Below, one piece after another: positions 1,448-64,000 of a stretch of DNA of 64,000 nt; the stretch's first letter is position 1; the number at the start of each line of letters is the position of its first letter. The notes beneath the pieces are model-generated. The model was not told the DNA's origin. It ran no database searches and worked only from the letters and a program-made list of their open reading frames with translations. Source of the DNA: Amoebophrya sp. A120 (taxonomy: Eukaryota; Protista; Dinoflagellata); contig CAJINV010000005.1 of the NCBI GenBank assembly GCA_905178155.1, forward strand, positions 8,120,515 through 8,184,514, read 5' to 3'. Made by a program: the position numbers and the translations under genes.

Positions 1448-2625
1448 TCAGTACTGCTTTGGTACTCTTCTACTTCCCCTGCTGCTTCGCGACCTGCTTC
1501 GGCGAAACTTCTGAACCCCAGAGGAAAGAACCGAAACAACCGGTGGGGGAACAGCCCGTCTTCTCCTATCCGGGAGAAACCGGTCGTTGGGAATATCCGC
1601 GGTTGGGTCGTGCTCCTTCGAGTAGGGCTTGAGACGCCCGAAGACCTTTGTTGTCTTCTGTGCACAACTACGAGTGGGCAGCTTGTAGTTGTTTTTGTCC
1701 TGCTGCTGCTGTCCTGATTCTCCATGTAGTAGTATCAAATGCAAAAATGTCTGGGTCTGGAAACTTGTGATGCTGGTTGGCGAATCCTGAGGACGCCACA
1801 AGTGACGGCTCAGCATGACAAGTTTCTGACTCGCTAGGTGTTGCGCATTTTGCATGAAAAACCGCGTTTCGGCATGACAGAAAAGTGTGGCTTTTGGGTA
1901 ACGAGCATGACAGACTTTGGGGTCATGCTAGCAGAGCATGACAGACCTTCCATTCTTCCAGACCCAGACATTTTTGCAATCCATAAGTAGTCCTCCTGCC
2001 GCTGCTTCGCCGCGACAATTTTCATCCCACGACCGCCCTCGCGGAGATCTATCCGTAGGTCCCCCCAGTACGGCGGCGCGAGTACGGTTCATCCGGCTCT
2101 CCTGATACTCCCGGTCCACGCGCTGCCTGGCCCTCTCCCGGTCGTGCCTCGCCTCCTCCATCGCCTCTAGGTGGCATCTATCAAATGTAAAAATGTCTGG
2201 GTCTGGAAACTTGTGATGCTGGGTGGCGTCTCATGATGAGGCTACGACTACTAGCTCAGCATGACAAGTTTCTGAGCTCCTACGTGTTGCCTATTCCGCA
2301 TGACAAACTGCAGCGCTGCATCACAGAAAAACGGAGCTCTTGGGTTACGTGCATGACAGATTTAAGAGCCATGCCAGACAAGCATGACAAACATGAATTC
2401 TTCCAGACCCAGACATTTTTACAGTTGATAGCATCTGCAGTCGTGGTCCTTCTCCTTACTCCTAGCCCGGGGTCTCGCCCCCGCTATCGCGTTGGGTCGC
2501 CGGGTTGCTGGGGGAGGAACCGCAGGGATAGTACTTCTACCGGGATGACGAGCAGTAGAGCGCTTTTGCCTTGCATCCACATGATCCTCTCCTGGTCGTG
2601 GTGACTTTGTCTTTGTCAACAACAT
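1448..2625 (-). CDS. hypothetical Arg/Ser-rich protein, 3 exons
   Basis: ORF pieces 2419-2625, 1928-2161 and 1448-1855 join in frame (DCRC|HLEAMEE and GGLL|HGESG) after removing elements 2179-2430 and 1733-1985 plus one direct repeat each. Confidence 0.6.
1733..1985. mobile_element. introner-like element, family A
   Basis: TIR tatcaaatgcaaaaatgtctgggtctggaa / ttccagacccagacatttttgcaatccata; DR agtag. Confidence 0.9.
2179..2430. mobile_element. introner-like element, family A
   Basis: family A TIR; DR gcatc. Confidence 0.9.
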
Positions 2626-4217
2626 CTTTGCGGCGCTTTGGTTACCAGAGGACCTGCATCAAATTCTTGTTATGAACATCTTGTTCCTTTTTGATCTTTC
2701 ATGCCCACAGGAGATTCTTCTTCAAAACGCTGCTCTACCACGTCTCGGTCGCAGTCCTCTGCGATATCGAAAACTACGTTTTAACGAAGGTATCAAAGGA
2801 AAAAGGGGAAGAAGCAAACGGAGCATCTGATAGGCAATTCGATTTTTCTTTCGAGTTGATGTGTTGAAAATGCATTTTGATTTCTAGTTATTTTCATTCG
2901 ATACAGCGCACTGTCGTGATCGTTGTTTCTTTAATACTTTTTTCAGCATCGGGATCGGATCTTCTGACATGTTTTTTTGCATAAGTATGTACAACTGTTG
3001 TAAAATGCACATGAATCGAAACGAGCTTGATTGAAATCTTACTCTCCACAGAGTTTTATGGAAGGAAAATGGAAGTTCGACACTGTCACTGTGTCTGTTT
3101 CATTGTTCCAATGGGAAAGTATTATCTTCTGACGCAACGGTTACTATGGAAACTGGGCAAGGAAAGTGGAAAATTGTATGGCAAAACAGAGACCGTGACT
3201 CTTCCAATCTCATCTGAGGTCTCCTCCTGATAATACGCGCATACAAAAGATCCTCTTTTTGCCTTCTGGCTTTCTTGCGAAGCTTTTGAATTCATGCCTA
3301 GACGATTCGTTTGGCGACCACATGACGGTGAGACACCAGTATAATTGCAAGATGAACAATGTTTCCAGATTTAGGTCCCGTCATTAGAAATACTTGTCAA
3401 CATCACCACAGACACGGCTCTCTGCTTGCATTTGAAGATTTTTTGATTTTTTTGCTTTTTTCAGTTTTTTAAAAAGGGTAGTTGGTTAGATAGCAGGAGA
3501 TGCTGGAGCACTTTGGGTAGTTGTAGTGCTGAAACAGTGCTATCGAATTACCTTAAACGAGTAATCCAAGTTTTGATCTGATCGAGATCTCGGTTTGAAG
3601 CAAACGCAAAGCTTCAAAACTGTCTGTCTTCTCGGTGGCTTATTTGACGTTTTTGCATACTTCAAAATCGCTCGAAGTATCGCTTGCAGTCATTCAAAAA
3701 TCCTGAGTTGTGCAAATTTTTTGTATCCGTGGTACATCGTCATATCCAGTCGTGATGAACAATATCGGTGTAGTTCTTGCAAAGTCGTTCTCCAACCTCC
3801 ATTGCATGGTCTGATGCAGCAGCAACTCGATTATAATCCCGTTGTAAATAAATGCCCTTGTTCACCGTATAGCTCGACTCGTGGTTGCTGTACTCCGAAG
3901 TGTTGATTTCCTGTCCGTAAAAAAGATGGTGATGAAGTTTGTCGATAAAAACCGCCTCCTGCTGATAGTGAAAGTCTTCCTCGATGCTGCAAAATACATC
4001 GCCTCCTCGTAGATATGTAGTGGTCGATCGTCGGTAAAAACTCCTGGTTTCGTCTTCGATACAGCATGTAGTAGTTTATTCGCCAATACTGCATTTTTAT
4101 CTCCGAGGTAGTTGTCTGCTCCGTCTTGGTACAACAGATTCTCCGTTTACAAGTGGAAAGTGCGATTCATTCAGCTCGTGTTCGACAAATGCACAATTGA
4201 CCTTCTAGGTAGTATTC

Positions 4218-4377
4218 TATGAACTGCAAAAGTATCGTACTCGTATAAATGCATTACAAATAATTTTAATTTTGTTAGCATGAGAAATAATAATAAAATT
4301 TGTAATGCGGATTTGACTTAGGGAAAAGATTTGTAATGCATGATTGCAATACGAATACGATACTTTTGCACAGGATA
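4218..4377. mobile_element. introner-like element, family E (no host ORF recovered)
   Basis: TIR tatgaactgcaaaagtatcgtactcgta / tacgaatacgatacttttgcacaggata; DR tattc. Confidence 0.88.
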
Positions 4378-4532: not shown

Positions 4533-7500
4533 TCAGTCACGCCTGCGTACGCGGTCCTTTGGGCGCGCGACCACCTCGTCATCGTCGTCATCATTATTAT
4601 CCCTTTCGCGGCGGTCCTCCCGCTCCCGGCGGGAAGCCTTCTCCTCGTCGCGGTCCCGGCGGGAAGCTTTCTCCTCATCGCGGTCCCGGCGGTCCTCCCG
4701 GCGATCGCGGCGGTCGTCATCGTCATCACGGTCGCCACGGTCGCGGTCCCGGCCGCGCTCGCGGTCACGGTCACCCCGCTTCTCATCATCCCGGTCGCCA
4801 CGACGCTCCCGGTCACGGTCGTCTATCAGCGGCAAATATGTCTCTGTCTGGGAGATTGCGAGATTTGTCATGCTAGTCTGGCATGACTCTGCACTCTGTA
4901 TTGCGTAGGGCCGTCGGAGGAGCCCCTCTTGCATGTCATGCAAAAACGCAGTTTCTAATGCGGAGTACGCATTACAGATGAAACCACGGAAAAATGACTT
5001 GCCATGTTGGGCAGCACATTATTATTACAGTGTTTTCACTACAATTCCCTTCCTTGCATCACAAGTTCTTTGCAGACTGAGATCGATATTTGCAATGCAT
5101 ATCGTCCCGGCGGTCGCGGTCGCCGCGTTCGCGCTCGCGGTCCCGGTCACCCCCACGGTCACGTTCGCGCTCCCGGTCACGGTCCTCACGGTCACGGCCC
5201 CGTTCCCGGTCGTGGTCCCGGCGCCCACGCTCGCGGTCCCGGGAGTCGCGACGACGGTCCCGTTCGCGACCCAGCACGTGGATGCGGCCATTGCGGTCTT
5301 CCTCGATCTCGTATTTGACCCCAGTGGAGGAGCCTTTCACCTGGGATCCGAACCCGCGATCGTACGGAATCTCCCCGTGTATTCGGCTCATGCTCGGTAT
5401 GCAAGGAAAAACTCGGACCCGGGGAAAAATCGGTCAAGAATGTCTTTTACAAAAACCAAGATAATTCTTTGATAATATGCAGTGAAAAATCAAGTTGATT
5501 GTAAGACACGTCATTGTGACAGGTTGTCATGCACAACTAGCAATGATATTTAAAACATAGACAATTGTTGCATTTGGTCGTTCCTAGCGAGGATCAAGAT
5601 TCGAGTTCGTCTACAAACAAAATTTCACCTGCATGACAAATGCTAGCTGCGCATGACAACTTAAGTGTATCAAAGGGGTATAAAAAGAGATTTTGACCCG
5701 GTGAATTGAGAAACCATCTGCTCATCCTTACCCTTGGTGTGATTCGTGTTGGCCGCAAAATCGAAGTGAATCTGTTTTTTGGATAATAGAATATCGAATG
5801 ATCTTTTGTGCAATAGAAATATCAAAACGAAACAACGTCAATTGGCAGCTCCTCGTTTATCTATACCCGCGGTCCTCATGTTGTTAACACACAGAATCAA
5901 AAATCCGCCAACATCTACTACGTACTAATCCTGCCTGCATCTTCAGAAGTGTAATGTAATTATAGTCAACACCAGTTATAGTTTCCTCAATAATGTAAAA
6001 AACAACTTCTACAAAAATTAAAATCACAAAACGCCTAATAAGAGCTGTACCTTGTTCCCCCCCAGCATGGGCGGCGTGGTGCCAAAGGAATCCAAGTAGC
6101 CGATCGCTTGCGAGGCGTCCTCCGTGGATTTGAACTCCGCGAAACCGTAGGTGGCGTTGTCCAATTTCAGTCGGACCCGGAAAACTTCCACTCCCGAAGG
6201 TTGGAACCACGTTTTAATATCCTCGTCTGTCGTCTGCACGGGCAGGTTCTTGAGAATGATCGTGTTACTCGGCTCAGACCGCGGTTTGTTGTTCGTCACC
6301 ACCTATCCTGCGTAAAAAAGTCTCCACCCCGGAGTTGTCATGCGAATCTGCATGCCTACAAAGTTTGTCATGCGCAGACACGAGATGAGAGGCATTTTCT
6401 AATTTTGTCCGGGAGTTTGTCATGCTAGAATCAGGATAAGAGGGTCGCTATGTTCTCCTGCGGCTGCACTACCTATGCCAGATTATACCGCAGCGAGCCC
6501 ACACTTGTCATGCGCAACAGGCAAACGGTGTTGATTTGTGTTGCAAAATTTCCATCTTGCCTCTGAGGTGGGGACGTTTTTACGTAGAATACCACCGGCT
6601 GGGGTTTCTTCCCCTTCTTTCCCCCTTTGCCGCCGTCCTTGCCCTTCCCCTTGCCCCCTTTGCCGCCCTTCTTTCCACCGCCTTGTCCCCAGTTATTCCA
6701 ATCCTCGCCCCAAGATTCGTTCCCTCCCCAGGTTGCTGGGACAGCCTGCACTATCGTAGAGCAAACTATGCTATCAACCTTTGTCAGGCTGAGGTCATGA
6801 AAACAAGAGCGAAATAAATGGTCTGAGGACATTTTTGCCTATGAAAACTCCACAGAACTACAAAAGTACTAACTACGACTACCCTGTGTAGTTAACAAGA
6901 GATCTTCCGATACTACACTACAGAGCAGCGAGCTGAGAGTTCTTGTACAACAGGATCTCTTGGCATGATCCTGTTGTAATGATCGGATAGTAGTACTAGT
7001 ACTACGTGCAGAGTAATAAGACTGAAAATCTTTAGTTTGCAATTTCAGCATGACACCAAGCAGCGCTAGCATATTTTACATCTGATAGTCGTTCCGGTTC
7101 TCTGCATCTGCGCAGCCATCAGCGCCTTAAACTCATCGGACCCGGGCTTCGGACCCGCCGCACCACCCGTGGCTTCCGCCCCCTGCGCGTCCGCGTCCGC
7201 GGTCTGGGCCGCGAGTCGCGCCTGCTGCGCCGCCTGGGCGGCCTTGGCCTGCTGCATCTCCAGTTCAATCGCCTGCTCCCCCGTCAGCGGCGCCGGGGGC
7301 TCCTGCGTCTGTTGCTGCATCTGCATCAGTTCCGCCTGCATCTGCGCGTTCAGGTCGGCACCGGCGCCGCCCATGGCTCCCATCTGGCCAGCACCCGGAC
7401 CCGCCTCTTCTTCCGGCTCCTCCGTACCGGGCTCATTGTATGACAGTGCACAACTCCCCCTCCCCCTCATTTGTATTGCATGAACAGCAATACAAACACC

Positions 7501-10216
7501 AGCACACGCAGAGCCTGTGCATGGCAAATTCATGCAGTTCTAGTGTAGTACTGTTTGCGCTACTTCGTGAATTTGTCATGCATACTAGTGATACAAGGGA
7601 AGCAGTTGGATTTTGGGTTTTGCATGAGAAATGAGGGGGAAAGGGAGTTGTGCACTCTCATACATTGTAGTAGTTGATCGGAAATTTCCCCACGCCGACC
7701 TTGAACCGGGCTCCGAGCTGCTGGACCTGCCCAGCAAAGTTGGTCTGGAGCTGAATGTTGGCATTATCCTTGCTGGAAATCTCCAAAAAGGCCTTCGCAC
7801 CGTCGATGCCGGTAAATTCCAGGAAACCTGATAGAAGTGGTCGTGTTTTTCTTTCTTGATAATATCCAGTTACATTTGCATGTAGTCCACCTCCGAGGCC
7901 CGACCAGCATAATATTTCTAGCTGGTCAGGAGAGCTCGAAGATGGAGGTACAGTGTAGAATTTCCCGTCTAGGCCCCCGTGCACTTGTTTTTTGTAAATG
8001 TCGGATCAACATCGGACATTTCGAAGATCCTATTCGACCACAGTGCACATTCCAGCTTCCTAGACTGACAGAACTTCTACTGCACCATGATGTGAGATCG
8101 CTTCAATTTTAACCGCCAATACCGAGTTTTCCAGTTTTCGATTCGTTTTGTTGTAACATGCCCTTACCTGCCTTCCCAGTCTTAGAGATCTGTTCATCCG
8201 CCTGTTGAATGTAGATGTTGCAGGGGGGTTCTAACGACTCGGCCGTCACGAACTCATTCACCGCGATGGTTAACTCGCTGTCATCGTACTGCTCCGGGTA
8301 ATTCACGATACACAAAACGTTGGACTCGCGCGGGGGCTTCTTTTGCGGAACGGGGACGGATGCAATCGGGTCATACTGGTTCTTGCCTTTGCCTCCACCA
8401 ACGGGAACATGCATATCCCCCATCCAATTTTTCCCGCCGCCTTTATTTCCTATCCTGTGGAAAAACGTTGTCCTCCCCACCCCATAGTCAAGATCGGATG
8501 AAAACGGCTAAGTACACAAATCCACAAGCTTTGGCTGTTTTGCAGATGACACATTGAGACTCGTAGTGTAGTGCTGTTTGAGCTAGTATCCCAGCAGCAT
8601 CACAGATCTAGAATAATATCATGCTGATATTATTAGCATGACAAATTATCCAAAACACGCCTTCAAAAAAATGCGTCTCATGGACCTGATTCGTCCGCAT
8701 GAGAAACATAATTTGCAGCATGCAGATTATTGCATGACAAAGACAACTATGGGGTGAGGACGTTTTTGCATCTAGGATATTTCCTTTGTTATTGTTCCAC
8801 TTCCCGCCACCTTTGTTATTATTGCCCCAGTTATTGTTGTTATTGCCCCAGTTGTTGTTATTGCCCCAGTTATTATTGCCGCCCCAGCCGTTGTTGTTGT
8901 TGCCCCAGTTGTTGTTGCCCCAGTTGTTGTTGTTATTGCCCCAGTTGTTCTTGTTGTTGTTCATCTTGCCTTTCCCCTTCTTCCCCTTGTTATTCTTCCC
9001 GAAGCCGTTGCCGTTAAAACCGCCCGCGCCGGTGCCTTGGAACATGCCCGGCGGCGCCATGCCCATGCCAGGGGGGTTTTGCTGCATACCTCCCATTATG
9101 CATTGCAAAAGTTTATCGTGATCTGGGTCTGGATTTGTAATGCTAAAGACTTCAAGGACAACAACAAAATCCGTAATGCATGAATGGGCAGTTTTTTTAT
9201 CATGCCGTGAAATAACTCAGCTGGTCATGCGTTTTAATACGAAGGAATCAGCAATCAGCCTCGCGAGATAATTTCTCATGCTGTTATGCCGTTCACGTGC
9301 CTACTCTGCAATGGAAGCTTCAGCAACACAAGTTTCCAGATATGATCCAGACATAGATATAATTTGCATTGGATACCCATCATGCCGCCTCCCATGCCGC
9401 CCATCGGATCATCGCCGCCCTCACTTCCCATCATCTGTTGCAATTGCTGCTGCTGCTGCATGAGCATCTGCTGTTGCTGTTGCAGCATCGCCAGCTGCGC
9501 GCCCGGGTCGTCGCCGCCGGCATCGGCTCCAGCGGCAGTATATCAAAGTGAAAAATCCTCCCTCCCCATATTGTTACGGAAACTTCTGTTGCTGGATTTG
9601 TGTACACAGATCAGCCCTGTCTTGCAGTGAGGCACTACAAGCAAAGCCTCAGCCTGCGTAGGGGTGTTTTGTTGTAGGCACTTCGCATGACAGAGGCCTG
9701 CCATCTACGTGAAACCGCATTACGAATCGCCTCCATAAGGCTGCGACTTCTTTGGACTTGCCTTCTTGCAAGAGAGACAGGATTTGTGGTCACAAATCAG
9801 CATTACAAATTTTTAGGAACATACGTTTTCAATATGGGGAGGGGGGATTTTTCCTCACGGTACAGCACCGTCACCGCCACCCATGGCCGCTCCCATGGCC
9901 ATGTTCTGCTGCATGGCAAGCATCATTGCCTTATCAAATGCAAAAATGTCTGGGTCTGGAAGAGTCATGCTGTTTTTGCATGACGCAGAAGGTCTGGCAT
10001 GGACACTCTAGCATCACAGGTTTCGCGAAGCGTTCGCAATGCCGAATTCGCATGACAAATGCCCCATTTTGGTGACAGAAAGTGGACAGCTTTTGCTACC
10101 TATGCACGAGAGATTTTTCTGTGTTCTGAAATGCGCATCACAAGTTTGTATTCTTCCAGGCCCAGACATTTTTGCCTTTCATATGCCTGCATCTGGGCCG
10201 GGTCTTGACCCTCCAT
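4533..10216 (-). CDS. RNA-binding protein with two RRM domains, Q/M/G- and N/G/W-rich low-complexity N-terminus and RD/RE-rich C-terminus
   Basis: RRM1 VLCIVNYP...KAGFLEF; RRM2 IILKNLP...YGFAEF...GNK|IHFDFA; frame kept across 7 elements and inferred GT-AG introns 7828-8167, 6751-7079, 5772-6050, 5393-5697. Link to the RD-rich tail is the least certain junction. Confidence 0.75.
4824..5101. mobile_element. introner-like element, family A variant
   Basis: degenerate A TIR; DR tcgtc. Confidence 0.85.
6304..6591. mobile_element. introner-like element, family B
   Basis: TIR tatcctgcgtaaaaaagtctccacccc / ggtggggacgtttttacgtagaata; DR ccacc. Confidence 0.88.
7439..7662. mobile_element. introner-like element, family F
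   Basis: TIR tatgacagtgcacaactccccctccccctcat / atgagggggaaagggagttgtgcactctcata; DR cattg. Confidence 0.9.
8451..8779. mobile_element. introner-like element, family B
   Basis: family B TIR; DR tttcc. Confidence 0.88.
9097..9375. mobile_element. introner-like element, family A variant
   Basis: TAT...ATA ends with ctgggtctgga core; DR cccat. Confidence 0.85.
9541..9862. mobile_element. introner-like element, family C
   Basis: TIR aaaaatcctccctccccatat / atatggggaggggggattttt; DR cagta/cagca. Confidence 0.87.
9932..10183. mobile_element. introner-like element, family A
   Basis: family A TIR; DR tgcct. Confidence 0.9.
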
Positions 10217-12587: not shown

Positions 12588-13864
12588 CTTATCTGCGCGT
12601 GATGCGACTCCGTGAAATAAATTTTTGTTCGCTAATTTCAAAATGCAAACTATCTTCACTCGTGCTAGCGCTACCACCACCACCACACACGGTAATTAGT
12701 TTGTAATGTTATGTAGCTGATGCTGAAAGAGTTGTCTATGACATACATGCAAGACAAAAAGACACTGTAGTAGAACTGTACCTGTTGTAGCTGTTCTCAA
12801 AATATCAAATGCAAAAATGTCTGGGTCTGGAAACTTGTGACGCTGGGTGGCGTAACATTGTGAGGCCACAAGTGCTGGCTCAGCATGACAACTTCCTGAG
12901 CGTCTAGGTGTTGCCTATTCTGCATCACGAACTGCGTTTCTGCATGACAGAAAAGTGGGGCTCTTGGGTAACTTGCATGACAGATTCAAGAGTCGTGCCA
13001 GACAAGCATGACAAACATGCATTCTTCCAGACCCAGACATTTTTACACATGATACAAAAAACGCGAATTTGTTATCCTTCGGTCCGATTAAGTTCACATT
13101 GGTATGCATTGCAAATACCGATCTGGGTCAGGGAAGAATGCGAGATTTGTCATAGTAGTCTGGCATGACACTGAGCTCTGATGTACTATTGCGTGACCAG
13201 CAATAGCTCCTCTTTGATCTGTCATGCAGGAACGCTGTTTGTCATGCGAAAAACGCAACTACACAAGGCCACGGAAAATCAATCTGTCATGCTTGGTGGT
13301 GCATGACACCAGTGTGCTTTCTATTCTCTGGCATGCATCAGTACAAGTTTTCAGACGTCCAGGGATATTTGCAGTTGATACTTGGCGTTGAGACTCAAAT
13401 TCCCCAACTCAAACTTTGGCGTCGCAGAGGGTGCGGGTGCGGGGGCACTCTCGCTGTAGAAGGCGTAACTTGGCTTCGAGCCGGTAGTAACCGTGTTAAC
13501 CATGGACACCCCGCTCTGGTCTTCCACATCGGTCGTGGGGTCTTTGGTCTGATTTTGTTTTTATGCGTCTCTTGCATCACAAAGAAGACGTGTCATGCTG
13601 CGTCTGCTGTTCGAAGAGAAAACCATTATTTAACTAATCAAAACAGTCTAGATACTAAGACGTTAAATGTAAATCAAAACTATCAATCTATACCGCGTTC
13701 TTCTCGCCACCACCCCCCTGTAAGCTCGCCGTGTTTGCCGGAAAAAAGGAAAACTGCGGTGCGGGTAACGCGTAGGCCGTCGGTCTGGCGAGCTGCAGCA
13801 GAGGTTGTGGCGCCGCAGCGCTCGAGGACGAGCTCTGATTGTTTGGCGACGCCAAATTGAACAT
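12588..13864 (-). CDS. hypothetical low-complexity protein (ends approximate)
   Basis: exons TKDPTTDVED...LNAK|VNLIGPKDNKFAFF|ENSYNR join in frame across elements 13103-13380 and 12803-13054; flanking GT-AG introns inferred. Confidence 0.45.
12803..13054. mobile_element. introner-like element, family A
   Basis: family A TIR; DR caaaa. Confidence 0.9.
13103..13380. mobile_element. introner-like element, family A variant
   Basis: degenerate A TIR; DR attgg/cttgg. Confidence 0.83.
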
Positions 13865-16129
13865 TTTCGGCTTCTTTTTAGGTCCGATCGATGAACTAAG
13901 CAGCTCTACTCCTCGTCGCAAAAACAGCTGATATGGATCTTCATACCCGAAAGACCTCAACTCTAGTTGGAATTTCAATAATTTTCATCGCACTCTGTGT
14001 GAAAGAGCAAGGTGATACTGGAAACGCTCCATAGAGCTGGCTGAAGAAGCAAAGCTTCTGCTTCTTATCCGTCATTGCCAATCAGCGGTTTTAAAATCCG
14101 TGGTGCACGACACAACGCAACCAATGCCGACCACCGCAACTCCAACGGAGCACCTCCGTCGAACACCAGGCAAAAGCCGGAGATATCTTCTGGCAAATTG
14201 GGTTTGGAAACTCTCGCGACCTTGTTGGCTTCAGAGCCCGCGCAGGCGTAATGCTCAACGGCGCTTCTTCACCTTCGTCTTGCCAAAAAGCCACTCGCGT
14301 GGGCGGGGCGTGCCGGGAACCACGCCTGGTCTACGCCGCCTGTGATTGCCCTATGCACAGCTGCGGCCTGACTGGGAGGCGGCGCGATTCGCGAAATCAA
14401 GACTCGGCGCGCGTCGCCGCGCTTGCCCGGGAACGGGCTGCCCCAAAAAAAAGCCAAGGGCGGGAGCGCAGTGGCCTCGCCCGGGGGCGGCAGCAGCCTG
14501 CAGCCTGCCGCCCTGAAAGCGGCGGAGCGCCCCCCCACCCGCCCGGGGCCGGGCCAAGGGAGAGCGGGGGCGCGCGGCTAGCCTAGGGCTGGCCGGCCAT
14601 CTCGTGGCTGATGGTCGTGCTCTGCTCAAACGCGCCGCCCTTTACATGCGCGGGGATGGAATTGGCGGGCCAATCTTCGAACGCGGGGCGCCTGCGTAGC
14701 TGCATCCCCCAGCGCCCGCGGCGTCCTTGCGGTAGGGCCGGCCAAGTCCTGCCCCAAGAGCAGGAGGCGCCGGGCGCCTAGGCAGGGCCGCAGGAGTTCG
14801 CCGAGGCGTTCCCGGGGGGGCCGGGTTACCGGAGTGGCGGCCGCCTCGGCCGCCTGCGCCTTCCGCCGCATGGCGGCAGCGCCCAGTAGGCGGGGGGCGG
14901 GGAAAGGCAGAAAAGGCGGCGGCGCGGCGCTTCGCGAGTGGCGGCCTTTTTGTCATCCCGGCGCGCGGGGCCGCCTGCCTGTCCATGTTCTGGCCCCCGG
15001 ATATCGTGCCGCGAAACCGGGGGCGATGATGACGGCGCTGCCGGTGAAGATGAAGAAGGCGGACGCTGCGCGCCCCTCCGCCGGAGTTGGCGAAAAAGGT
15101 CCTGGATGAGGAGGCACCGAAGGGCGGGGCCTAATTTCCCAACCTGCGGCACGCCGGCGCCGACGTCTCGGCACGCTGCACCCTCGCGCCCCTACTTCTG
15201 CCGCACGTAGGAACATGCCCGGGAATTCACAGGCCATGGCGCAGCATCTCGCTCCGGCGCGTGCTGCGACTGCGAAAGTATTCCCGCGAGGCAACTTTCT
15301 CGGCCCCCCGCATGAAGGGCGGCGCGCCCTTTTTCCGAATGTGCTCGCCGCCGCCAATGCACTGGCGGACTTGTCTGCGCTGCTCCTGGCCGGCCTTCTG
15401 GACGACGGGCGGCAGAAAAGCACCGAAGTCGGGGCGCCCCCCTTTGCTTCTCCCAAGAGTATTCGCATTCGCCCGGATCGATCTTGCATCAATGTGGGCC
15501 CGCCCGGGCAGACGGACAAGCCTGGGAAGACGGAGCCGGGCGACGGCGCGGCCGTCTTGGCGGTCCGGCACTGGGCTAACTATCCAGCTCCGCCGCCCTC
15601 TCCAGCAGCTGCGCCCCTCTGGCCTCCGCGGGTTTCAACTTGCGCAAGACATGGGACCAGAAAAGGGCGGCGGCCTGGCAAGGCTGTTGCGCGAGCGAGC
15701 TGCCGCGCAGCCCGCCGCCTGGTGGGCGTCGGTATCGGCTGGGCCGGCCTGCCTGGGGCAAAACCGCGCCGGAGGTCCACCGGAGAGGTGTGGCCCATAA
15801 ACATGCGCACGCAGGCCGGCGGCCTCGGCCAGCTTGGAAGGGAAGGGCGGCCGCCCGCGCTTGGTTGCCCGGGCCCCGCGCGCAGCGGGCAGCGGCATGA
15901 CTGCAAGGACCAAAAAGCGCGCGGGCGCGCGCGCTTTTGCGCGCGCGGCGGCTCGGTCTCGCGCCTGGTATCATCAGCCAACTATAACAAAAACGCTTCG
16001 CCGCCATGCCGTCGTCACCTCCTTGGAAGGCCTTTGCCACGCACTGACTCCATTTCCGCGAAGAAACTTGAACACAAAATGAGAAGGACACAAAGAAGCG
16101 CAACTCAACTTCTCCTCAGTATCTAGTCC

Positions 16130-17670
16130 TTGAGGAGGCGGATGGTCCTCCTCGACTTGTTTATAATTCGTTTTGACTTTACTAACAGCGGAAAATTATC
16201 AATCAACTATGCGCAACTCCCTCAGGCCACAGTGCTGCGCTTCGCGTTCATCGAAATCAACAGTAACTACACGAAAAACTCTTCAATTAAACATCTTCGA
16301 AAAGCAGGCCGTGAACGCGTTTTTGTTCTTCGGTTTTTTCCTCTTCTGAATCCGCGGGTCTTGTTGCTCCGGCAGACCCCGAACTTTCACGAAGGTAGGA
16401 ACGCCTGGATGAAGATTTTATTCATTTTGTTCATTTTGTCATCATGCTAGAATGAACCCGCAATACAGAAGGACGAGCCCCTTGTCATGCGAAACCAAGC
16501 ATTTCATATAGAACAACAAAACCGATGAAATAACTCTTACGATTGGGATCCTCGTTTTCCTCCTCTTCCTCCGCCTCGTCCGGACTTCCGACAAATCCCA
16601 AAGGCGTCCCTGCGTTCGCGAAGAACTGATCGCGATTGTAGTCCCGCTGGTTGTTAGAAGAGTAGTCGTTAAACTGATTCTCATTTGTTCCACCACAACC
16701 AACATCCGCAGTAGTATCGTTGTTTCCGGTAATTTATCAAATGTAAAAATGTCTGGGTCTGGAAGAATGCAATATTTGTGATGCAGTTTTTCCATGACCC
16801 ATGAGGCCTGGAATGCAGCACCTAGCACGACAAACGCTGTGAGGTGTCTATCATGCCTATTCTGCATGAGAAACTCCCTGTCAAACTGTTCAAAAGTGGA
16901 CATCTTTTGGTCATCACGCAACACAGATTTTTGCATGCTTCAGATTTAATAGCATAACAAGTTGCATTCTTCCAGACCCAGACATTTTCACATTTGATAT
17001 AATTTGGTTGTACATGTGGTGGAATTGCGTCGCCAGCGGATTCGCGAAGAGAAAAGAACCGGATTGATTTTCCACCCCGTCATTTTGGTTCAACACCGGC
17101 GTACTCGGAGCGGTGAGATTATTTCCCCCCTCACCGACCGCCGAATTTTTCGGTTTTGCCTGCACGTAGAAATAATCGGTGATGGAGGTGGCTACCGCGC
17201 CGACCGCCGTGGTAGTCGATTCTGGCGGGTCTTGTTCTGAAACTGGGGGCTTGGTGTTCTGTTTCTCCGTGGGGAAAAACGAGCTAGAAGTTTTTATCGC
17301 AAGAAAAAACTGCTTCACTGTGAACTTGTGGTGCAGAAAATGGAACACAAGACTATTTGTCTTGCTCCAGCTGCAAGACATTGGATTTTCAAGCGTGTTT
17401 TTCCTTGGGAAGCGCGCATGACAAATTTTCAGTGTCATGTGTAACAAACTTGTGATGCAGATCTTGCAAAATCATCACAGAGAAACAGTTTTTTCGTGGG
17501 ATAGTTGTAGACGAGGGTGCAATACTAAACGCGGCTGCTGGAGTGCCTGCCACTGACGTTTGACTTGCTGGCGCAGCCGCGCTGTTGTGAATTTCAAAAG
17601 ATTTTTTTTCTTATTATCTTGCACAAATTAATACTTATTCCGGACGCATACTAAGTAAACCGATTGCATG
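16130..17670 (-). CDS. hypothetical Ser/Thr/Asn-rich protein (ends approximate)
   Basis: in-frame joins PSST|TSSSFF and YNQI|TGNNDT across elements 17295-17503 and 16735-16999; GT donor near 16540. Confidence 0.45.
16735..16999. mobile_element. introner-like element, family A
   Basis: family A TIR; DR taatt. Confidence 0.9.
17295..17503. mobile_element. introner-like element, family D
   Basis: TIR tatcgcaagaaaaaactg / cagttttttcgtgggata; DR gtttt/gttgt. Confidence 0.86.
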
Positions 17671-17869
17671 GTAGAGGTGTTGGTGGTGTTGGTGGTGGTG
17701 GTGGCTGTGCCATATTAAAACTAAAACTAACACTTTTTCCGACCTAAACCAACGAAAGAACTCCGAGTTGTTCGTGTGACCTGGAGAGTTCTTCTTGCAG
17801 CGATGCCTCAAATTCGATTTGTCTTGCAGTTGATCTTGGTTTATCTTCACAATGAAAGGGACGATCATT

Positions 17870-19492
17870 CTAATTCCCCCGCTCCCGTAGCCACGCACCA
17901 TAGCTCTTTGGCCATTCGATTTTTACAAACCCGCCCTGCTCATCACGGTGGACGATGATTTTGTCATCCGGCTTCACTGCCTCTTCCAGAAACTGCAAGA
18001 CCATCTTGCCCACGTGTTTCATGGGAAGCTGCACCTCCTCAAAGTCGTCGGTCGTTACCACGATGCAGCCGTTTTCCCGATCTGTATCACACGAAAAAAG
18101 TGTTAAAAGTTACACATTTGTTGTCAATTGATTCAGCAGCACAAATTTCTCATCTGCATGAGAGGGAAACAAACCTGCATTGCAGAAATCCCACGAAATA
18201 AAAGCACGTATGAAACAAGGCTCGTCCCGTGCATATCCGGCATAATAGAGCTTATCTGTCATGCCACGCCTGCAACGCAATGTGTAGCTGTAACACTTTT
18301 TTCTTGCGATAATCTGCGTAGCTGAAGTAGTAGCCCGTCTTCGACAATTTTTATCCTGTGCAAAAGTATCGTACTCGTAGTAATTGCAGTCATGCATTAC
18401 AAGTCCTCTTCTTTAGGTAAATCCGCATTACAAATTTCATTTCTCATGCTGAGAAAATTTGTAATGCATTTATACGAGTACGATACTTTTGCAATGCATA
18501 ATTTTACCACCCGCACGACGTCCTCGCAAAAGTACTTGCTGTAACCCCCCGCCCATGCATTGCAAAAGTACCGCACTCTGTTACTAATTGCAAATAGGCA
18601 TGACAAATGTTTTTTCTCAAGCTAAAACAGCATTGTAAATTTCATTTGTAATGCTGATCTGATTTGTAATGCAATTTATACTAGTACGATGCTTTTGCAT
18701 TTGATACCGCCCGGTCCGCCCCGGTGATTTTCTTGTAGTCTACCTTGTAGTGAACCTGGTAGCGTTATCCAGTGCAAATACATCTGGGTCTGGAAACTTG
18801 TGATGCTGAACTGTGGATGCCTGAATTACTTCCCAACGCACCCCAAGCATGACAAGTTTGCCGAAACACCTTTCTCATAGGCGGCCCCCATGAGAGACTG
18901 CGCTTTTGTATGACAGAAGGGGGCGTCTTTATCTTGTTAGTCCTGCAATACAGATTTTACAGGAGTGTAGGATTCGCACTACAAGCTCCAAGTTTCCAGA
19001 CCCAGACATATGTACATTTAATAAGCGTCCCTTCTTGTACGGTTCCCACCGGACACACAGCCGCAAATCCGGGTCGTTGCCCTCCTGGTAAATCATTCCC
19101 GCACGGAGATCCACCGCTTTCGTTTTCGTGCCCATCTGCGCTTCGAGCATTCGCGGGCAGGTTCGCGTGAAAAAGGTGCGACGATTTGGGAGGTGGCGCT
19201 GGAGGAAGGTAGTAGATCCAGGTGCGCAGTGGTTTTCGTTGATACGCCGGGGCAGGAAAAAGCTGCTGCTGCTTCCATGGCCTGAAAGCGACGTGCTGAT
19301 CGGACGCGAGCTGTTGCCGTAGTAGGGTGCCACATCCGCGGTGACAAGAACACGCGCGCGTGTAACCACGTATGGCTGCCGGCCTTGCTGCGCGACGAGC
19401 GCCGGCCCTCCGAGGCGTACCGACCCAAAAGCAGCTGCTGCACTCCGGGAAGCAATTGCTTCCGGCCGGAGTGCAAACCGAAGCGACGCCAT
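17870..19492 (-). CDS. elongation factor P-like protein with a long Ala/Arg/Ser-rich organellar (mitochondrial-type) leader
   Basis: spliced product AVDLRAGMIYQEGNDPDLRLCVRWEPYKKGRYQVHYKVDYKKITG...YYFSYADRENGCIVVTTDDFEEVQLP...FLEEAVKPDDKIIVHRDEQGGFVKIEWP resembles EF-P domains I-II by eye; four elements removed in frame. Confidence 0.6.
18085..18311. mobile_element. introner-like element, family D
   Basis: family D TIR; DR atctg. Confidence 0.87.
18352..18500. mobile_element. introner-like element, family E
   Basis: family E TIR; DR atttt. Confidence 0.9.
18554..18706. mobile_element. introner-like element, family E
   Basis: family E TIR (CAT start); DR ccgcc. Confidence 0.86.
18766..19023. 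mobile_element. introner-like element, family A
   Basis: family A TIR; DR agcgt. Confidence 0.88.
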
Positions 19493-46482: not shown

Positions 46483-46633
46483 CAGCGAACGACTTAACCG
46501 GGTGCACGACTTAAGGGGGTGCACGACTTAAGGGAGCGAACTACTTAAGGTTGCGAACGACTTAAGGGAGCGAACGACTTAAGGGCGCCACGCACCCAAA
46601 GAGCGAAGCACTTAAGCGAAGCACTACTTAGCG
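46483..46633. repeat. ~17 bp tandem repeat (gcgaacgacttaaggga)
   Basis: about 8 degenerate copies upstream of L2HGDH. Confidence 0.8.
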
Positions 46634-46735
46634 TTCCAAATCGCAACTGATTTCGCGCGTTTTATATTTATTGCCGCCAGGTAAGTAGATGTAGAAGTAG
46701 AACCATTTCCAGTGGTAGAGCACGCTTGTTCGTAC

Positions 46736-49448
46736 ATGACAGCCACGCGCGTGGTCATTCTCGGCGGCGGTGTTATCGGTTTTGCTTCGGCACGGCAAAT
46801 CGCACGGAGATTCGCCTTGCGCAGCAAAACCAAGTTGGACTTGTTCCTGCTCGAGAAAAACCCGTCTTTCGGCCAGGATATCGAACGCAAATATGTCTGG
46901 GTCTGCATGAGTGCAACTTGTGATGCCGCCTTTGGATTCTACACAAACTCTGCATTGCATGACCAGGAAGATGCCTCCCAGTTTTTGCTACGCTGGGAGG
47001 GCGCATTTCTCATGCGGTAGACGTATCATAGCGCCCTCACAAAATCTGTGATGCTGGGGTGTGCATCACAGACATCATGGGCCACGCAAAATGTGCATGA
47101 CAAACGTTGCATGTTTCCAGAGCCAGACACAGTTGCAATGGATACAGGAAACGACCTCCCGGAATTCCGGGGTGTTGCACGCGGGGATCTATTACCAACA
47201 AGATTTACGCATGTGTCAGAGTTGAAATCGACAAAGTTGAATATAATTTGTCATGCATAAAATGGATGCCAGTTTCCAAGTGGCGCATGACAAATTTCGC
47301 TGGTCCCTACATCCAGTTTGTCATGCTGTTAAGCAAAGAGGAGTGATTTTCTCATGCTACTTCAGCAGCTCGGACTGTAACCCCAAACAGGCTTACAATC
47401 GGCCTCACTTGCCTGCTCTGCAACACACGTACCTCGGGCCATGCATTTTATGCATTACAAATTATTTCAACTTTGACGATTTCAAACCTGACGCTTCCAT
47501 AAGATTCCTTCAAACACAAACTCTGCGTTGCTGGGCATAGCCAACTTTTGAAGTTCTGCGACCAGTACCAAGTCGACTACGATCTCTGCGTATCAAATGC
47601 AAAAATGTCTGGGTCTGGAAGAGTGCAAGATTTGTCATGCAGATTTCTCGCGATCCATGATGCCTGTAATGCATGGCCAAGCATCACAGACTTTTAAAGG
47701 GCTTACCGATGCACCTTCCGCATGAGAAATGCCCTGTCCATGTAGGACAAACCGGACCCGTCTTGCTGGTCGTGCAATACAAATTTTTTTAGAGTCCAAA
47801 AACAGCATGACAAGTTGCATTCATCCAGACCCAGACATTTTTACAATTCATACTGCGGAAAATTGATCGTGCAAGACCGATGTGGTTCATCACCAGAAGA
47901 AAACAAAACCGCGAAAGAAGAATTGTTGAAGTTGTATCACCAAGGGAAAGAATTGAATAACGTCCCGAAACTAGAATTGATCACAGACGATTCCGCAAGA
48001 TTGCAGCGCATGACGAACCAATTATTGAACCCGGAGATCAAAAATGCGATCTACAGCCCGGCGACCGGAATATTGGATGTGCACGGGTATTTGCTAGCCT
48101 TGCAAGCGGCATTGGAGGAAGAGGAAAGTGATTTTGTGAACGCGAGTGTCGTGTACAATTGCGGACTGGAGCAGCTGGAGGTGAAAAGTGAAAATAAAGC
48201 TGGCAATAGCAATACAAGCACTAAAATGCAGATCGAAACCACCCAAGGTGTCATCGAGGACGTGGACGTTTTTGTCAACTGCAGCGGGCTATGCATTGCA
48301 AATAAGTCTGGCTCTGGACACTTGTGTCCCTGTTTGGCGAATCATGTGGACGCCTTCATTGACAGCCAAGCTTGACAAGTTTTGGAGTTGCTAGAGTGTT
48401 GCCTATCTGCATGACAAACTGCGTTTCTGCATGACAGACAAGTGCGCCTTTTGTGTGGCGCGCATGACAAACTTGAGAGCCATGCTAGCTGTGCATGACA
48501 AACCCTGCATTCTTCCAGACCCAGACACTTTTGCAATCGATACAGCTTGTTTTCGGTGGAAATCGCGAAACACTGCTTGAGAGGAGTTCCTTCTCCGGTA
48601 GAAGAACTACTCCCGGACGCGGTGTACGCGAAGGGCAATATGACAGTGCACAACTCCCCTTCCCCCTCATGTGTCCTGCAAAATCCCAAATCCACCGGAC
48701 CCTTTTCTCTTTGGCACTTTTTGCATGACAGGTTCCGGAAGCCGAAACAGCACTAGAATCGGTTTCCAATTTGTCATGCAAAAGCTGCATTCATGCCAGC
48801 ACTTGTGTTGCTGCTTATGCCCTTCAAATGAGGGGGAGCGAGGAGGAGCTGTGCAGTTTTATAGGCAACTACTGGAAGTTGGAAAATAGCGCAAGCAGCA
48901 GCACTACTTCTACCAGTAGTACGGCAAAAGCAAAGAAGCCTGGTGACGTAAACCACTTGATCTACCCGTTGCCAGAAGTGGGCGGTCTCGGGACGCACCT
49001 GACGTTGGATTTGGACAAAAACGTCAAGTTCGGCCCGAACGTCGAGTGGATAGAAATTGAAGAGATAGAGACCGACGCCGGTGGTAAGAGTTCCTCCAGT
49101 CATCTATCAAGGAAATTGTCCAACCTCGAGAAGCAGTTCGAAACGCACTACAAACAAGTCCAGCCCGCGTCGGATATCGTGTACGAAAACATCCGGCGAT
49201 ACTACCCGGATTTACCCGACCATTCGCTGACGCCGGACTACGTGGGGATACGACCGAAGATAAAGTTGAAGAGCGATCCTGCCAGTGGCGGTGAGACAAG
49301 CAAGATACACAACGATTTTCACTTTCTGACGGATGGGACCAAAAATTCACAGATACACTGTCTTGGGATAGAATCCCCGGGTTTGACAAGTTCGTTAGCG
49401 ATCGGAGCGCATGTCGCGGATCTGGTTGTGGGGAAAGCTTTTTCCTGA
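46736..49448 (+). CDS. L2HGDH: L-2-hydroxyglutarate dehydrogenase (FAD-dependent oxidoreductase)
   Basis: VVILGGGVIG FAD motif, ETTSRNSGVLHAGIYY, CGKLIV, SPATGILD, KGNYW, LIYPLP..GLGTHLTLD, YVGIRPK, GIESPGLTSSLAIG; 5 elements removed. Confidence 0.92.
46879..47144. mobile_element. introner-like element, family A
   Basis: family A TIR; DR cagga. Confidence 0.87.
47206..47501. mobile_element. introner-like element, family G
   Basis: family G TIR, reverse orientation of 42077-42382; DR agatt. Confidence 0.88.
47591..47852. mobile_element. introner-like element, family A
   Basis: family A TIR; DR ctgcg. Confidence 0.9.
48290..48542. mobile_element. introner-like element, family A
   Basis: family A TIR; DR decayed cgggc/cagct. 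Confidence 0.84.
48639..48863. mobile_element. introner-like element, family F
   Basis: family F TIR; DR ggcaa. Confidence 0.88.
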
Positions 49449-50015
49449 TTTGAAGAATTGCGTCCGTCGTGCGGCAGAAAGACGGAAAATTCACATTGCA
49501 ACGGGCAAAGGGAGCTACCAAAGCTCTGTATCTGCTGTTCGCTTCTGTATGCAGCTGTAGCTTCTTGAGGTCTGAAAAAATGCGAGTTTTTATAACAACG
49601 AGAGGATCTACTGTTTGATCTCTTTTTCGTTCTTGTGTGATCTCGTTCTTCCAGTTGTCTTTCGAGGCTGTCACGAAAGGAGTGGTTCAAGATCTTTGTC
49701 TGGAAAATCATGCAGATTCGGATCGTCATCGTGCTTGTGCATTTGGATTTTTACCATTGTTTGAAGATCTCCTTGTTCACAAGTAGATTCGGTCTTTCAG
49801 ATTGTTTTTTGGTTTTCTCATTTTTGTCAGAGCTGCACGTCTGCATTTGCTCTGCATTCCGTGATCCTCCTCTCACGACCGTCTCGGAAGCTGTGGCTTT
49901 TCGGATCTTTTTTCAGTTGAAATAAATCGCAAGCTAACCAGAAGGTCGTGCGACGTCATCATGGCCGGCTTACGCCAGAACTGATTCGTAGTAGAAAAAG
50001 ACAAAAATTTTGACA

Positions 50016-62481: not shown

Positions 62482-63333
62482 TTGATTCCCTCCTCGCATC
62501 TGGTGCAGCCGTGTGGTGTCGCTGCTGCTACAATGAGTTTCAATAGTTCTTTGTGCGTCGAGTTATATTCTTCATTCTAGCATCAAAGCCAAAAGCAACG
62601 ACAGGTGAACAGTTTCAAAGGATCCAATCAAGCGACCAAGGATGATTTTCCAATGAGAATACAGAACACGTGGTGATGATGTGTAAACAAGGAAGTACTA
62701 GCCGGGAGCAGGCCAGTGAAAAAGGAAAGCGCACGACACATGGCGCACTTTGATTTTCCGGTGTAGCTTGTGGTACTATGAGGTTTTTGTTTTCGAGGCT
62801 GAAACTAATGCGCTGGATCCAGATCTGATTGAACTTAGATCCGGGATTGTGGAAGAGGACGGTATGATCAGCGAACTAGTCCTGTCCATGCCGGCGACGC
62901 AGGAGCAGCGCGAGGCTTATTTTCACTTGCGGTATGATTCTGTCGTTTTTTGTACATGTTGGTTCATAATAGCAATATGTGGTGCGTAGGCGCTCGTTTT
63001 TGTGGCAGGTCATCTAGGTTATACCCCTTTGGCGTGTCGCGGGTAGAGAGATGATCCGGCAGTCGTGGGTCATAAGTAGTGAGATCACGAACGAGTTCCG
63101 CAATCTGCACTGTAATACATGATTATCCCCAGGATCTTCCACTAGATTCCCACGTAGAAGAGGCCATCAGTGAGGTAGGTGCTTAGGCTACTCTGCGCTT
63201 AGTGAAAACTGACAAATGCATGTGCGCGAATTTTTCTGAGCTGTGAAAACAGCTGCATATGTTGTTTTTCCCTGGCGTCCAACCTTCTTAAAAGCCTTTA
63301 GTAGTTTCTCGAAGAACCGCCTCTGTACAAAAG

Positions 63334-64000
63334 ATGGCTGCTTTTAGAAAGTCGAAAGCTCCTTCCCGGGGCTTCATGCCAGGATCTTCCTCATCATTCC
63401 TGCGCCGGCTGAGCACGAGCATTTTGCTGTTATTTTTCTCATTCAGCAGTTCACTTCTTTCAACCACATCAACCACCGTCCACGCCTTCTTCCTGACCAA
63501 AACCATCGACACCGCCGTTGACGACGCCTTGCAACTTTTCGAGTACTGTGCGAAGTGGGATGACCGGGAATACGTGAAACTTTTGATTTTCGACCGAATG
63601 CAGAAGCAAAGGAAGGTCATGCGAAGCTGTCTATTCCACTTACTGGAGCGGGTGAAGCGAACCGCCAGGATTGTCTACGCCGCGTACCACCACCCGATTC
63701 TGAAGCCGAAACTCGACCCCTATTTCGTCGACCTAGCGGAGGACTTTTGGCTCCAGGTGGTCGAATTAAGTAAAACCCCCCGCATGCACAAGGAGTGGTA
63801 CTACTGGCACGGACCGAAGGTGCAAATGCCGCTGATATTACAATGAAAAATCTCCCTCCCCCTACTCAAATGGAGATTTGTGTAGCGTGATTTGTGATCA
63901 TAAATCTTGCTGTCATGCTACAAGGGAAGAGATGCAGACCATAGTGCTGGCTGGCGTGGGTAAGCCTTGCGTCTTCAGCATGACAGGAAGCAACTGGAAG
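63334..64000 (+). CDS. hypothetical protein with N-terminal hydrophobic segment, partial
   Basis: 167-codon first exon ending at a family C element (63836) that runs off the window. Confidence 0.6.
63836..64000. mobile_element. introner-like element, family C, truncated by window end
   Basis: left TIR tattacaatgaaaaatctccctcccc; interior similar to 22555-22865. Confidence 0.8.

Follow-up and report, generated by a model that had tools for sequence, protein, structure and literature searches.

A single cut register fits the removal of inverted-repeat introner elements from transcripts of Amoebophrya sp. A120

The genome of Amoebophrya sp. A120 has been described as containing introner elements (Farhat et al. 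2021; PMC7789003) of about 240 nt that carry a signature of TAT, seven variable bases and at least three A residues, are flanked by direct repeats of 3–5 nt, have no internal transposase, and are mixed with GT-AG introns. The splice site was described as variable and its border as unknown, and T occupies position +2 in all nine of the commonest non-canonical end pairs of A120 and in all nine of strain A25 (Table S4, PMC7789003). A120 keeps U2, U4, U5 and U6 together with nearly all spliceosomal proteins, and U1 was not detected. With the cut site left open in the publication, tests of mechanism have been blocked; a fixed register of one base before and four after the element now gives exact coordinates for lariats, circles and linear products.

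The window analysed here is a 64-kb (64,000 nt) stretch of A120 DNA; its exon 48864-49445 matches P0001, a database entry named Amoebophrya sp. A120, at 100% identity. It contains 71 complete inverted-repeat elements spanning 1733-62188, plus one severed at the window end (63836) and two decayed candidates (Table 1). The list comprises 64 of 66 profile-scan matches (those at 5398 and 10265 were left out) and seven additions by eye. Median element length is 263 nt, density is 1.1 per kb, and the summed length of 18,525 nt accounts for 29% of the window. At one threshold there are eight multi-copy families and six singletons, and three thresholds give 13–17 clusters. The original prediction of about 72 elements, at about one per kb, agrees closely with these counts, and its figure of about ten families was a fair one. 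An ungapped 32-nt end-to-end scan found 47 pairs with at least 22 of 32 matches and none in each of five block shuffles. The predicted TAT...ATA bounds are present in 63 of the 71 elements, with one base off in seven and two in one, and the predicted 5-bp target duplication has identical flanks in 49 and at least four matches in 65; displacing the comparison by 1–3 bases gives 0/71, and the duplication length is strictly 5 nt here. Among 108 repeat ends, picked by a TAT/ATA-anchored scan, positions 1–3 are T, A and T in 107, 107 and 106, and positions 11–13 are A in 96, 99 and 103.

A second assembly provided 285 distinct element copies across 170 loci, none of which overlaps the window exons. 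The elements have the traits of MITEs or non-autonomous TIR DNA transposons, namely terminal inverted repeats, a fixed-length duplication and no coding capacity. Across the window and loci totalling 425 kb, the longest elements with the same ends measure 457–981 nt, and no transposase-like frame was found by eye in these or in the window ORFs. The inner-repeat motif had no matches in viral contigs, and an Rfam scan of the window returned no families. Both orientations relative to transcription occur, in every family tested. Coming from the same genome with the same signature, the elements are, as predicted, the introners that Farhat et al. 2021 described, and differ from them in no respect of kind; the observation is confirmed and was largely already known. 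New here are the one register that fits all junctions, the strict 5-nt duplication, the +2 T held in the sense strand, and the use of both orientations.

Table 1. Elements, GT-AG introns and host genes, in window positions
Feature	Position	Strand	Remarks
Elements	1733-1985, 2179-2430 (family A), 4218-4377 (family C)		host strand uncertain; omitted from sense-strand counts
RRM-protein gene	4824..10183	-	no RNA coverage used
Elements, RRM-protein gene	4824-5101, 6304-6591, 7439-7662, 8451-8779, 9097-9375, 9541-9862, 9932-10183	-	
Decayed element candidates, RRM-protein gene	6752-7087, ~5398-5731	-	
Elements	12803-13054, 13103-13380, 16735-16999, 17295-17503, 18085-18311, 18352-18500, 18554-18706, 18766-19023	-	three frames in 12803..19023; no RNA coverage used
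URC1-like + URC4-like fused gene	21260..31167	-	908 codons, 16 elements, 5 GT-AG introns
Elements 1-8, URC gene	21485-21643, 21870-22079, 22237-22510, 22555-22865, 23205-23431, 23487-23636, 23729-24007, 24588-24806	-	
Elements 9-16, URC gene	24861-25132, 25288-25550, 27955-28275, 28330-28484, 28551-28840, 29441-29649, 30317-30578, 30628-30922	-	
GT-AG introns, URC gene	22896-23067, 24115-24554, 25637-27905, 29023-29220, 29915-30040	-	
Register-informative element	24588..24806	-	skip 224 = length+5; sense register 4 or 5
Register-informative element	28551..28840	-	duplication 2/5 matches; skip 295; register 4 or 5
Register-informative element	29441..29649	-	sense end ATG; skip 214; register 0-4
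Elements	32695-32958, 33331-33596, 34100-34362, 34535-34796, 34835-35087	-	
Element	33331-33596	-	register 4 or 5
GT-AG intron, locus 32695..35087	33760-33928	-	
Gene with 11 elements	38925..43267	+	
Elements, 11-element gene, first six	38925-39200, 39250-39392, 39685-39927, 40124-40379, 40494-40772, 40938-41147	+	
Elements, 11-element gene, last five	41215-41480, 41758-42009, 42077-42382, 42476-42813, 42955-43267	+	
Element	38925-39200	+	register 1-4
Element	39250-39392	+	register 3-4; ends TAC...ACA; duplication 2/5 matches
GT-AG intron, 11-element gene	41567-41727	+	
L2HGDH/LhgO-like gene	46736..49448	+	461 aa
Elements, L2HGDH gene	46879-47144, 47206-47501, 47591-47852, 48290-48542, 48639-48863	+	
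Sole exactly pinned intron	48289..48546	+	1 base before TAT (48290) to 4 after ATA (48542); ends CT...GC
Elements	50544-50805, 50931-51105, 51189-51469, 51555-51773, 51952-52250, 52608-52870, 53425-53584, 53803-54081	+	one long frame
Elements	57884-58135, 58505-58767, 58903-59182, 59413-60393, 60452-60739, 61341-61504, 61557-61835, 61925-62188	+	
Element	59413-60393	+	981 nt; family C ends, long interior
Element cut by window end	63836..64000	+	family D-like end

Pfam matches in the host genes are to DAO/LhgO-like (L2HGDH), to GTP_CH_N and GTP_cyclohydro2 (a gene we take to be URC1-like) and to DUF1688 (presumably URC4-like), in accord with the predicted placement in L2HGDH and URC1/4 genes. 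Removal of element plus 5 nt at all five L2HGDH sites yields a protein identical to P0001, and truncation results if any one element is kept, if one, two or five fewer bases are removed, or if one or two more are; shifts of three bases alter the protein length by one residue only. The URC gene less its 16 elements and five GT-AG introns has a single open frame of 908 codons. Read-through in any frame is possible for only 2 of 68 elements.

Transcript contigs skip exactly the element plus 5 nt at all 15 resolved junctions, and 12 further elements are consistent with such removal by summed length (529 nt predicted and 529 seen for locus 32695..35087, and 918 predicted and 918 seen for the 11-element gene); RNA contigs thus bear on 27 of the 71. 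None of the 15 junctions is readable as GT-AG in any fitting cut, one being readable as AT-AC and one as GC-AG. For the URC gene, a single contig in each of four runs carries, among the joints listed, those of nine elements together with those of three GT-AG introns, and non-GT-AG removal alongside GT-AG introns, as predicted, is thus seen in the same contigs. Neither element-retaining transcripts nor junctions at cryptic GT-AG pairs, the outcomes that the original prediction had set against itself, appeared. The RNA evidence consists of contigs from one study (two samples), for which the RNA label is presumed and in which minor cuts are hidden; two raw RNA runs yielded only 94 and 10 reads, each lying only partly on the stretch, and were uninformative. 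No excised intron, lariat or branch was seen in these data. A joint between 28484 and 34835 (running between two repeat ends, one side having 24 letters) and 15 listed joints of a DNA-like run were attributed to other repeat copies and set aside.

Where the two duplication copies differ, their mismatches narrow the possible cuts to a single one with which every junction agrees. This is register 4, in which the intron reads, in the direction of transcription, N-TAT...ATA-NNNN, with one base before the element and four after, and it is the sole cut common to all resolved junctions on each strand. Nine junctions on the two strands are informative and have only register 4 in common; the chance of this is about 5e-4 if nine junctions draw from 0–5 at random, and at most about 3e-3 if any shared register is allowed. 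One of the 15 junctions is exactly pinned, by arithmetic on the piece coordinates of one run (a piece ending at 48288, 87 letters, and the next listed piece at 48864), and the others bound the cut. The mRNA retains four upstream and one downstream duplication bases in transcript sense on both strands, and the cut position flips with the direction of transcription. A requirement for identical duplications was rejected, as three elements with two of five matches are spliced, each skipped by exactly its length plus 5 (3/3 tested), and mismatches are spread evenly over the five positions (16, 13, 12, 13, 14).

Intron ends were compared in 304 elements, 68 strand-called from the window and 236 from the second assembly, the latter restricted by design to at least four duplication matches. 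For the second assembly, strands were assigned by a model without RNA (49 of the 285 copies are uncalled), and leave-one-gene-out application of the model to the 68 window elements gave 63 right, one wrong and four uncalled. Position +2 is T in 303 of the 304 introns compared with 293 at the mirror end (exceptions 1 vs 11, p = 0.006), the figures being 68/68 and 65/68 in the window, and 235/236 and 228/236 in the second assembly, where the test was fixed beforehand (sign test p = 0.039). The skew disappears in contig orientation (5 vs 4), and the end-base constraint tracks transcription direction. Position +3 is A in 302 of 304, such that the elements have the U and A of U2-type introns at +2 and +3 and lack GT...AG ends (0/68 in the window and 9/304 pooled at register 4). 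Of the six registers, 4 alone places the repeat TA at +2/+3, like the GT-AG donors listed in the window, 7/7 of which begin GTA. At repeat positions 2 and 3, transitions that make mismatches exceed those that make wobbles (4 vs 2 and 9 vs 3), and therefore neither pairing nor one strand-biased mutation explains the +2 T skew. The same skew would be produced by a non-spliceosomal enzyme with a protein that reads the +2 U.

G occupies +1 in 36.5% of introns, against 30.1% of flanking bases (p = 0.017, with five positions tested in all), AG at the intron 3' end shows no preference (23/304, against a 6.9% background), and the first base of the following exon is A in 17, G in 23, T in 15 and C in 13 (n = 68). 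Targeting to proto-splice sites (AG/G) was rejected, as there is no AG excess. Position -7 is A in 300 of 304 versus 292 at the mirror end (p = 0.08), but the invariant branch A suggested by the window (68/68) failed in the second set (232/236; 8 exceptions at the mirror end vs 4, p = 0.39). No branch consensus skewed to the 3' arm was seen. Element 3' arms are T-rich before ATA, whereas A-rich ends predominate among the five GT-AG introns linked to RNA.

Removal is likely to occur at the RNA level and to be measured from the inverted repeat. We assign a probability of roughly 0.5 to a relaxed major spliceosome that cuts the elements at the fixed register, measuring from the repeat rather than from G+1 and AG, and regard it as likelier than a second machinery. 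Insertion would be by a putative integrase or transposase with a 5-base stagger, and the repeat at whichever end leads would provide the U+2 and A+3 of a donor-like site. The 3' cut may be fixed by distance, four bases beyond the repeat, with the well-paired inner arms (repeat positions 9–25) probably keeping the two ends close to each other and positions 4–8, which pair poorly, staying open; more speculatively, the A at -7 could be the branch nucleotide. The second, structure-guided splicing system of the original prediction would be the less likely reading, with TA at +2/+3 as in GT-AG donors, a sense-bound +2 T and no favouring of G-U pairs.

A possible but less probable explanation retains the same RNA-level register and has the elements cut by a separate nuclease and ligase that recognise the paired termini, a route put forward for the non-conventional introns of euglenids and diplonemids. 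In its favour, neither G+1 nor AG is required, both orientations occur and U1 was not detected; the element ends are predicted to pair (mean probability 0.69–0.75 at positions 1–3 and 0.74–0.86 at 9–16), and Euglena provides a precedent in its fixed-offset code N3CDG...CH'G N5-6/R and circular excised introns. However, the register rebuilds a donor-like xUA with the +2 U kept only in sense, and its 1/4 overhang corresponds to a 3-base stagger, unlike the 2-base stagger that RNase III leaves. Enzymes of the RNase III class have been suggested (PMC12621601). Selection on the stem at the RNA level was not seen as a G-U bias, since G-U pairs are not favoured over A-C (362 vs 341). This also counts against the relaxed-spliceosome reading, as do the folds: sense and antisense fold alike (lower in sense for 32/68), and two whole-element folds gave z = -1.75 and -1.14.

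It is improbable that the cut slides within the duplication and differs between elements or between molecules, the 'variable' site of the drawing by Farhat et al. With one junction pinned and contigs displaying only the majority form, some sliding could be accommodated, and published automated calls do differ among A120 families (first 21 of 58 rows), but perfect duplications lead to arbitrary aligner placement, which would explain that scatter; the informative junctions share only register 4, and the +2 T skew requires a fixed register. Programmed excision from DNA before transcription in some life stage, like that of ciliate IESs and raised in the original prediction, is very unlikely: TA-rich inverted ends with a duplication would suit it and contigs drop rare forms (1389 joints lie beyond those listed), but the DNA-like run holds 3/3 fully spanned elements intact with no difference, and both the retained bases and the end-base constraint follow the transcript. 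Reverse-transcriptase jumps over hairpins flanked by short direct repeats, although such sequences are the usual substrate for these artefacts and the data are of cDNA type only, are hardly credible given the exact skipping of poorly duplicated elements, the single contigs joining nine elements with GT-AG introns, and the truncation that any retained L2HGDH element causes.

Returning to the relaxed spliceosome, a broader proposal, to which we give slightly less weight, is that tens of thousands of A120 introns are spliced according to a ruler code, N-UAU...AUA-NNNN. The inverted repeat of the transposon would take the place of U1, G+1 and the terminal AG, and might also provide a branch A at -7. 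Wherever and in whichever orientation it landed, an insertion would then be a scarless intron removed by a spliceosome or a new enzyme without 3' splice-site sequence, and strain A25 would use the same logic with different repeats. This would explain how transposons fill essential genes at one per kb, a fixed register would permit re-annotation of about 30,000 introns, and the question posed is how a spliceosome or other enzyme chooses a 3' site without a sequence signal.

Several systems resemble this one, as described in the available portions of the sources, and those of Giardia and Fritillaria are precedents for the relaxed spliceosome. Euglenid non-conventional introns (PMC12501133, PMC11282704) are likewise transposon-like, with inverted ends, direct repeats that blur the junctions and fixed offsets. 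Their offsets are 3 and 5–6 around CDG/CHG with a purine at the next exon, whereas here they are 1 and 4 around TAT/ATA with any base following, so that the elements (N1-TAT...ATA-N4) depart from the pattern N3CDG...CH'G N5-6 plus purine; those portions report circles and no +2 T. The non-GT/AG introns of Fritillaria borealis (PMC11282704, PMC13326754) also derive from MITEs, bear inverted repeats and duplications, and lie in a host that keeps its U2-type spliceosome, but prefer AG-AC or AG-AT ends and U1 is kept, whereas in A120 the +1 base and the final two are almost unconstrained and no U1 was detected. Introners of Micromonas and Aureococcus (Huff et al. 2016, via PMC11282704 and PMC7789003) are likewise non-autonomous DNA transposons, and their splice sites divide the duplication in such a way that no bases are added; they have canonical sites, one derived from the duplication, in contrast to the random-looking targets and unselected AG of the A120 elements. 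Giardia introns (PMC6679479) are few and non-transposon, possess a conserved branch motif and end in AG, but are similar in having a donor, VTATGTT, with a free +1, an invariant branch-to-3' distance, and base pairing within the intron.

The window contains 71 complete TAT...ATA elements (29% of its length, median 263 nt) and one cut by its end (see table), in line with the ~72 inverted-repeat elements with a 5-bp duplication of the original prediction. The list comprises 66 profile-scan calls, minus those at 5398 and 10265 and plus seven from another scan or sequence inspection; when TAT...ATA pairs are scanned without gaps for 32-nt ends complementary at 22 or more positions, 47 are found in the window vs none in each of five shuffles. 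At the flanks, all five bases agree in 49/71 elements and four or more in 65/71, and other offsets give 0/71. The ten or so families expected correspond to eight multi-copy families and six singletons at one threshold, and to 13–17 clusters across three. An internal motif of ~9 bases occurs 189 times within elements (present in 69/71) vs 12 times in the remaining 45 kb. Copies outside called elements lie at 13574, 16482, 22995, 27113, 29994, 35224, 59272, 59321 and 61194, several of them in GT-AG-type introns, and some canonical introns in the window may be decayed elements.

Pfam matches over 20 exons are to DAO, GTP_CH_N, GTP_cyclohydro2, DUF1688, RRM and, weakly, DUF3431 (10 of the 20 have none at E 0.05), which bears out the predicted location of elements inside L2HGDH and URC1/4 genes. 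The final exon of L2HGDH matches a protein labelled Amoebophrya sp. A120 at 100% identity, and the gene spliced by removing elements plus 5 bases gives the same database entry. Given this identity and the A120 introner repeat described in the accessible part of Farhat et al. (PMC7789003; 29,850 copies, an initial TAT followed by seven bases and then As, 3–5-nt direct repeats), the elements are the already known introners, and the system is published for A120.

Coordinates of features in the window
Feature	Coordinates	Strand	Remarks
Decayed element-like intron	~5394-5731	-	canonical GTAAGG donor
53-nt near-identical direct repeat	10973-11024 and 12151-12203		borders 1.2 kb of non-coding sequence, which may be an old insertion
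URC1-like (GTP_CH_N + GTP_cyclohydro2) + URC4-like (DUF1688) gene	21260-31167	-	one 908-codon frame after splicing; a 4.5-kb contig spans the URC1 part and continues beyond 24555
GT-AG intron, 2,269 nt	25637-27905	-	three 37-51-nt copies of adjacent exon end + donor (near 25917, 26522, 27123); GC-rich degenerate repeats
Intergenic GC-rich tandem arrays	55300-56500 and 57050-57400		unit ~105 nt; short repeat
Family C element, 981 nt	59413-60393		GC-rich interior recurs in metagenome locus L027:1-656 (81% over 696 nt); L129:1-78 also noted; no transposase-like frame by eye
Element cut by window end	63836		additional to the 71 complete

RNA contigs are available from four runs of one study and two samples, their RNA nature being an automated guess; they skip GT-AG introns, indicating that they are spliced transcripts. 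Between 24300 and 35300, the 15 listed of 21 joints comprise ten that skip an element plus 5 nt, four that skip GT-AG introns and one joining two repeat ends, and element 32695 is an eleventh case, bridged by adjacent contig pieces. Piece coordinates of run X4 resolve four further junctions in 38600-54700. The skip equals element length plus five at all 15 resolved junctions, as predicted, and the cryptic GT-AG junctions that would have refuted the prediction are possible at none (0/15). Another 12 elements are consistent by summed length (529/529 and 918/918 bases), such that 44 of the 71 lie outside the RNA support. About 90 raw reads of run X7, labelled as the same species, join a family A repeat end (50772-50805) to other sequence and represent the same family at another locus.

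When the duplication's two copies are not identical, the one kept can be read from the transcript, which informs the register, the number of upstream duplication bases retained in transcript sense. Minus-strand junctions allow registers 4–5 (three), 2–5 (two) and 0–4 (one), and plus-strand junctions 1–4, 3–4 and 4; six of the 15 are uninformative. Register 4 is the only value common to the informative junctions, on each strand separately (chance ~5e-4 under random registers), with one junction, from one run, pinned exactly, contigs reporting majority forms and the published annotation possibly derived from the same RNA. The intron therefore extends from the base preceding TAT to the fourth base past ATA, a cut rule that flips with transcription direction. 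At 6752-7087 (-), an old element without remaining duplication, the frame is restored by the same cut and not by one displaced at one end by 1 or 2 bases. In the decayed element-like intron, a cut four bases past ATA and one at an upstream AG (18 bases away) each restore the frame, and use of the AG located five bases past ATA runs into a stop. Judged by reading frame, the cut four bases after ATA would make this a candidate hybrid intron; hybrid introns, if true, would favour one machinery for elements and GT-AG introns. The accessible text of Farhat et al. (PMC7789003) and of a review (PMC11282704) does not give a fixed register, nor do 21 of the 58 A120 rows of a 2025 dataset, in which automated splice calls disagree among families; legend S23 of Farhat et al. 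places repeats 1–5 bases from splice sites. A concrete cut rule makes the mechanism of a known oddity testable.

In register 4 the repeat supplies +2 and +3 (T, A), as in 7/7 GT-AG donors listed, and the target supplies +1 and the final four bases. Of the window elements, the 68 assigned to a host strand (three were left out) have NT...NN ends, none GT-AG and one ending in AG; +2 is T in 68/68 vs 65 at the mirror end (the equivalent repeat base at the opposite intron end), and -7 is A in 68/68 vs 64. For replication, 170 loci (425 kb; 80 listed, all JACKZZ01) were fetched from metagenome JACKZZ01 by a motif excluding the end bases. They contain 285 distinct elements, none more than 96% identical to a window copy, and a codon model called the strand in 236 (leave-one-gene-out: 63 right, 1 wrong, 4 uncalled). 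The +2 T skew is replicated (1 deviation vs 8 at the mirror, p=0.039; 0 vs 5 at the strictest strand calls) and is gone in contig orientation (5 vs 4), and the -7 A skew is not significant (mirror vs -7 deviations 8 vs 4; pooled 12 vs 4, p=0.08). In the pooled elements G stands at +1 in 36.5% vs 30.1% in flanks. In Table S4 (PMC7789003), T occupies the second position in each of the nine commonest non-canonical pairs for A120, and the nine for strain A25, whose repeat starts TTA, all begin TT, a pattern not remarked on in the accessible text.

Removal is independent of element orientation, with both orientations in seven of seven reference groups. Removal lengths are evenly spread modulo 3 (both results pooled). 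Arm complementarity is 96% at repeat positions 1–3, 59% at 4–8, 88% at 9–15 and 82% at 16–25, and the arms are predicted to pair. The structure-guided removal originally proposed is nonetheless unproven, as G-U shows no excess over A-C among pooled appositions (362 vs 341) and sense folds are no better than antisense; in two folds of whole elements the gain over shuffles is only mild, and symmetric sequence recognition would account equally well for orientation independence.

Insertion would involve an enzyme with a 5-base stagger; none was found by eye among the window's ORFs or among long same-ended elements of the window and the 425 kb, and the accessible part of PMC12130899 describes integrase-like frames enclosed by inverted repeats in an A120 family. 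Removal from pre-mRNA would be set by distance from the repeat. We favour removal by a relaxed major spliceosome (probability about 0.5), because the register rebuilds xUA and A120 reportedly keeps U2, U4, U5, U6 and most spliceosomal proteins, U1 not being detected. A nuclease-ligase distinct from the spliceosome, of the kind considered for euglenids and diplonemids (parts of PMC12501133 and PMC12621601), is less probable but is retained because AG is not preferred at the 3′ end (23/304 pooled vs 6.9% background) and no branch motif is seen in elements. A cut sliding within the duplication, rather than fixed at register 4, is improbable. Excision from DNA before transcription, which the original prediction allowed, is very unlikely, as the DNA-like run X5 (~45–50-fold, unbroken across 43239-47240) carries all three fully spanned elements intact with no difference, and the cut flips with transcription direction. 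A cDNA artefact is the least credible, the same contigs splicing GT-AG introns.

A preprint, as far as accessible, reports mostly GT/AG introns in Amoebophrya ex Karlodinium. The relaxed major spliceosome is favoured also because of Giardia, in which the accessible part of PMC6679479 describes a VTATGTT donor and fixed 3′ spacing.
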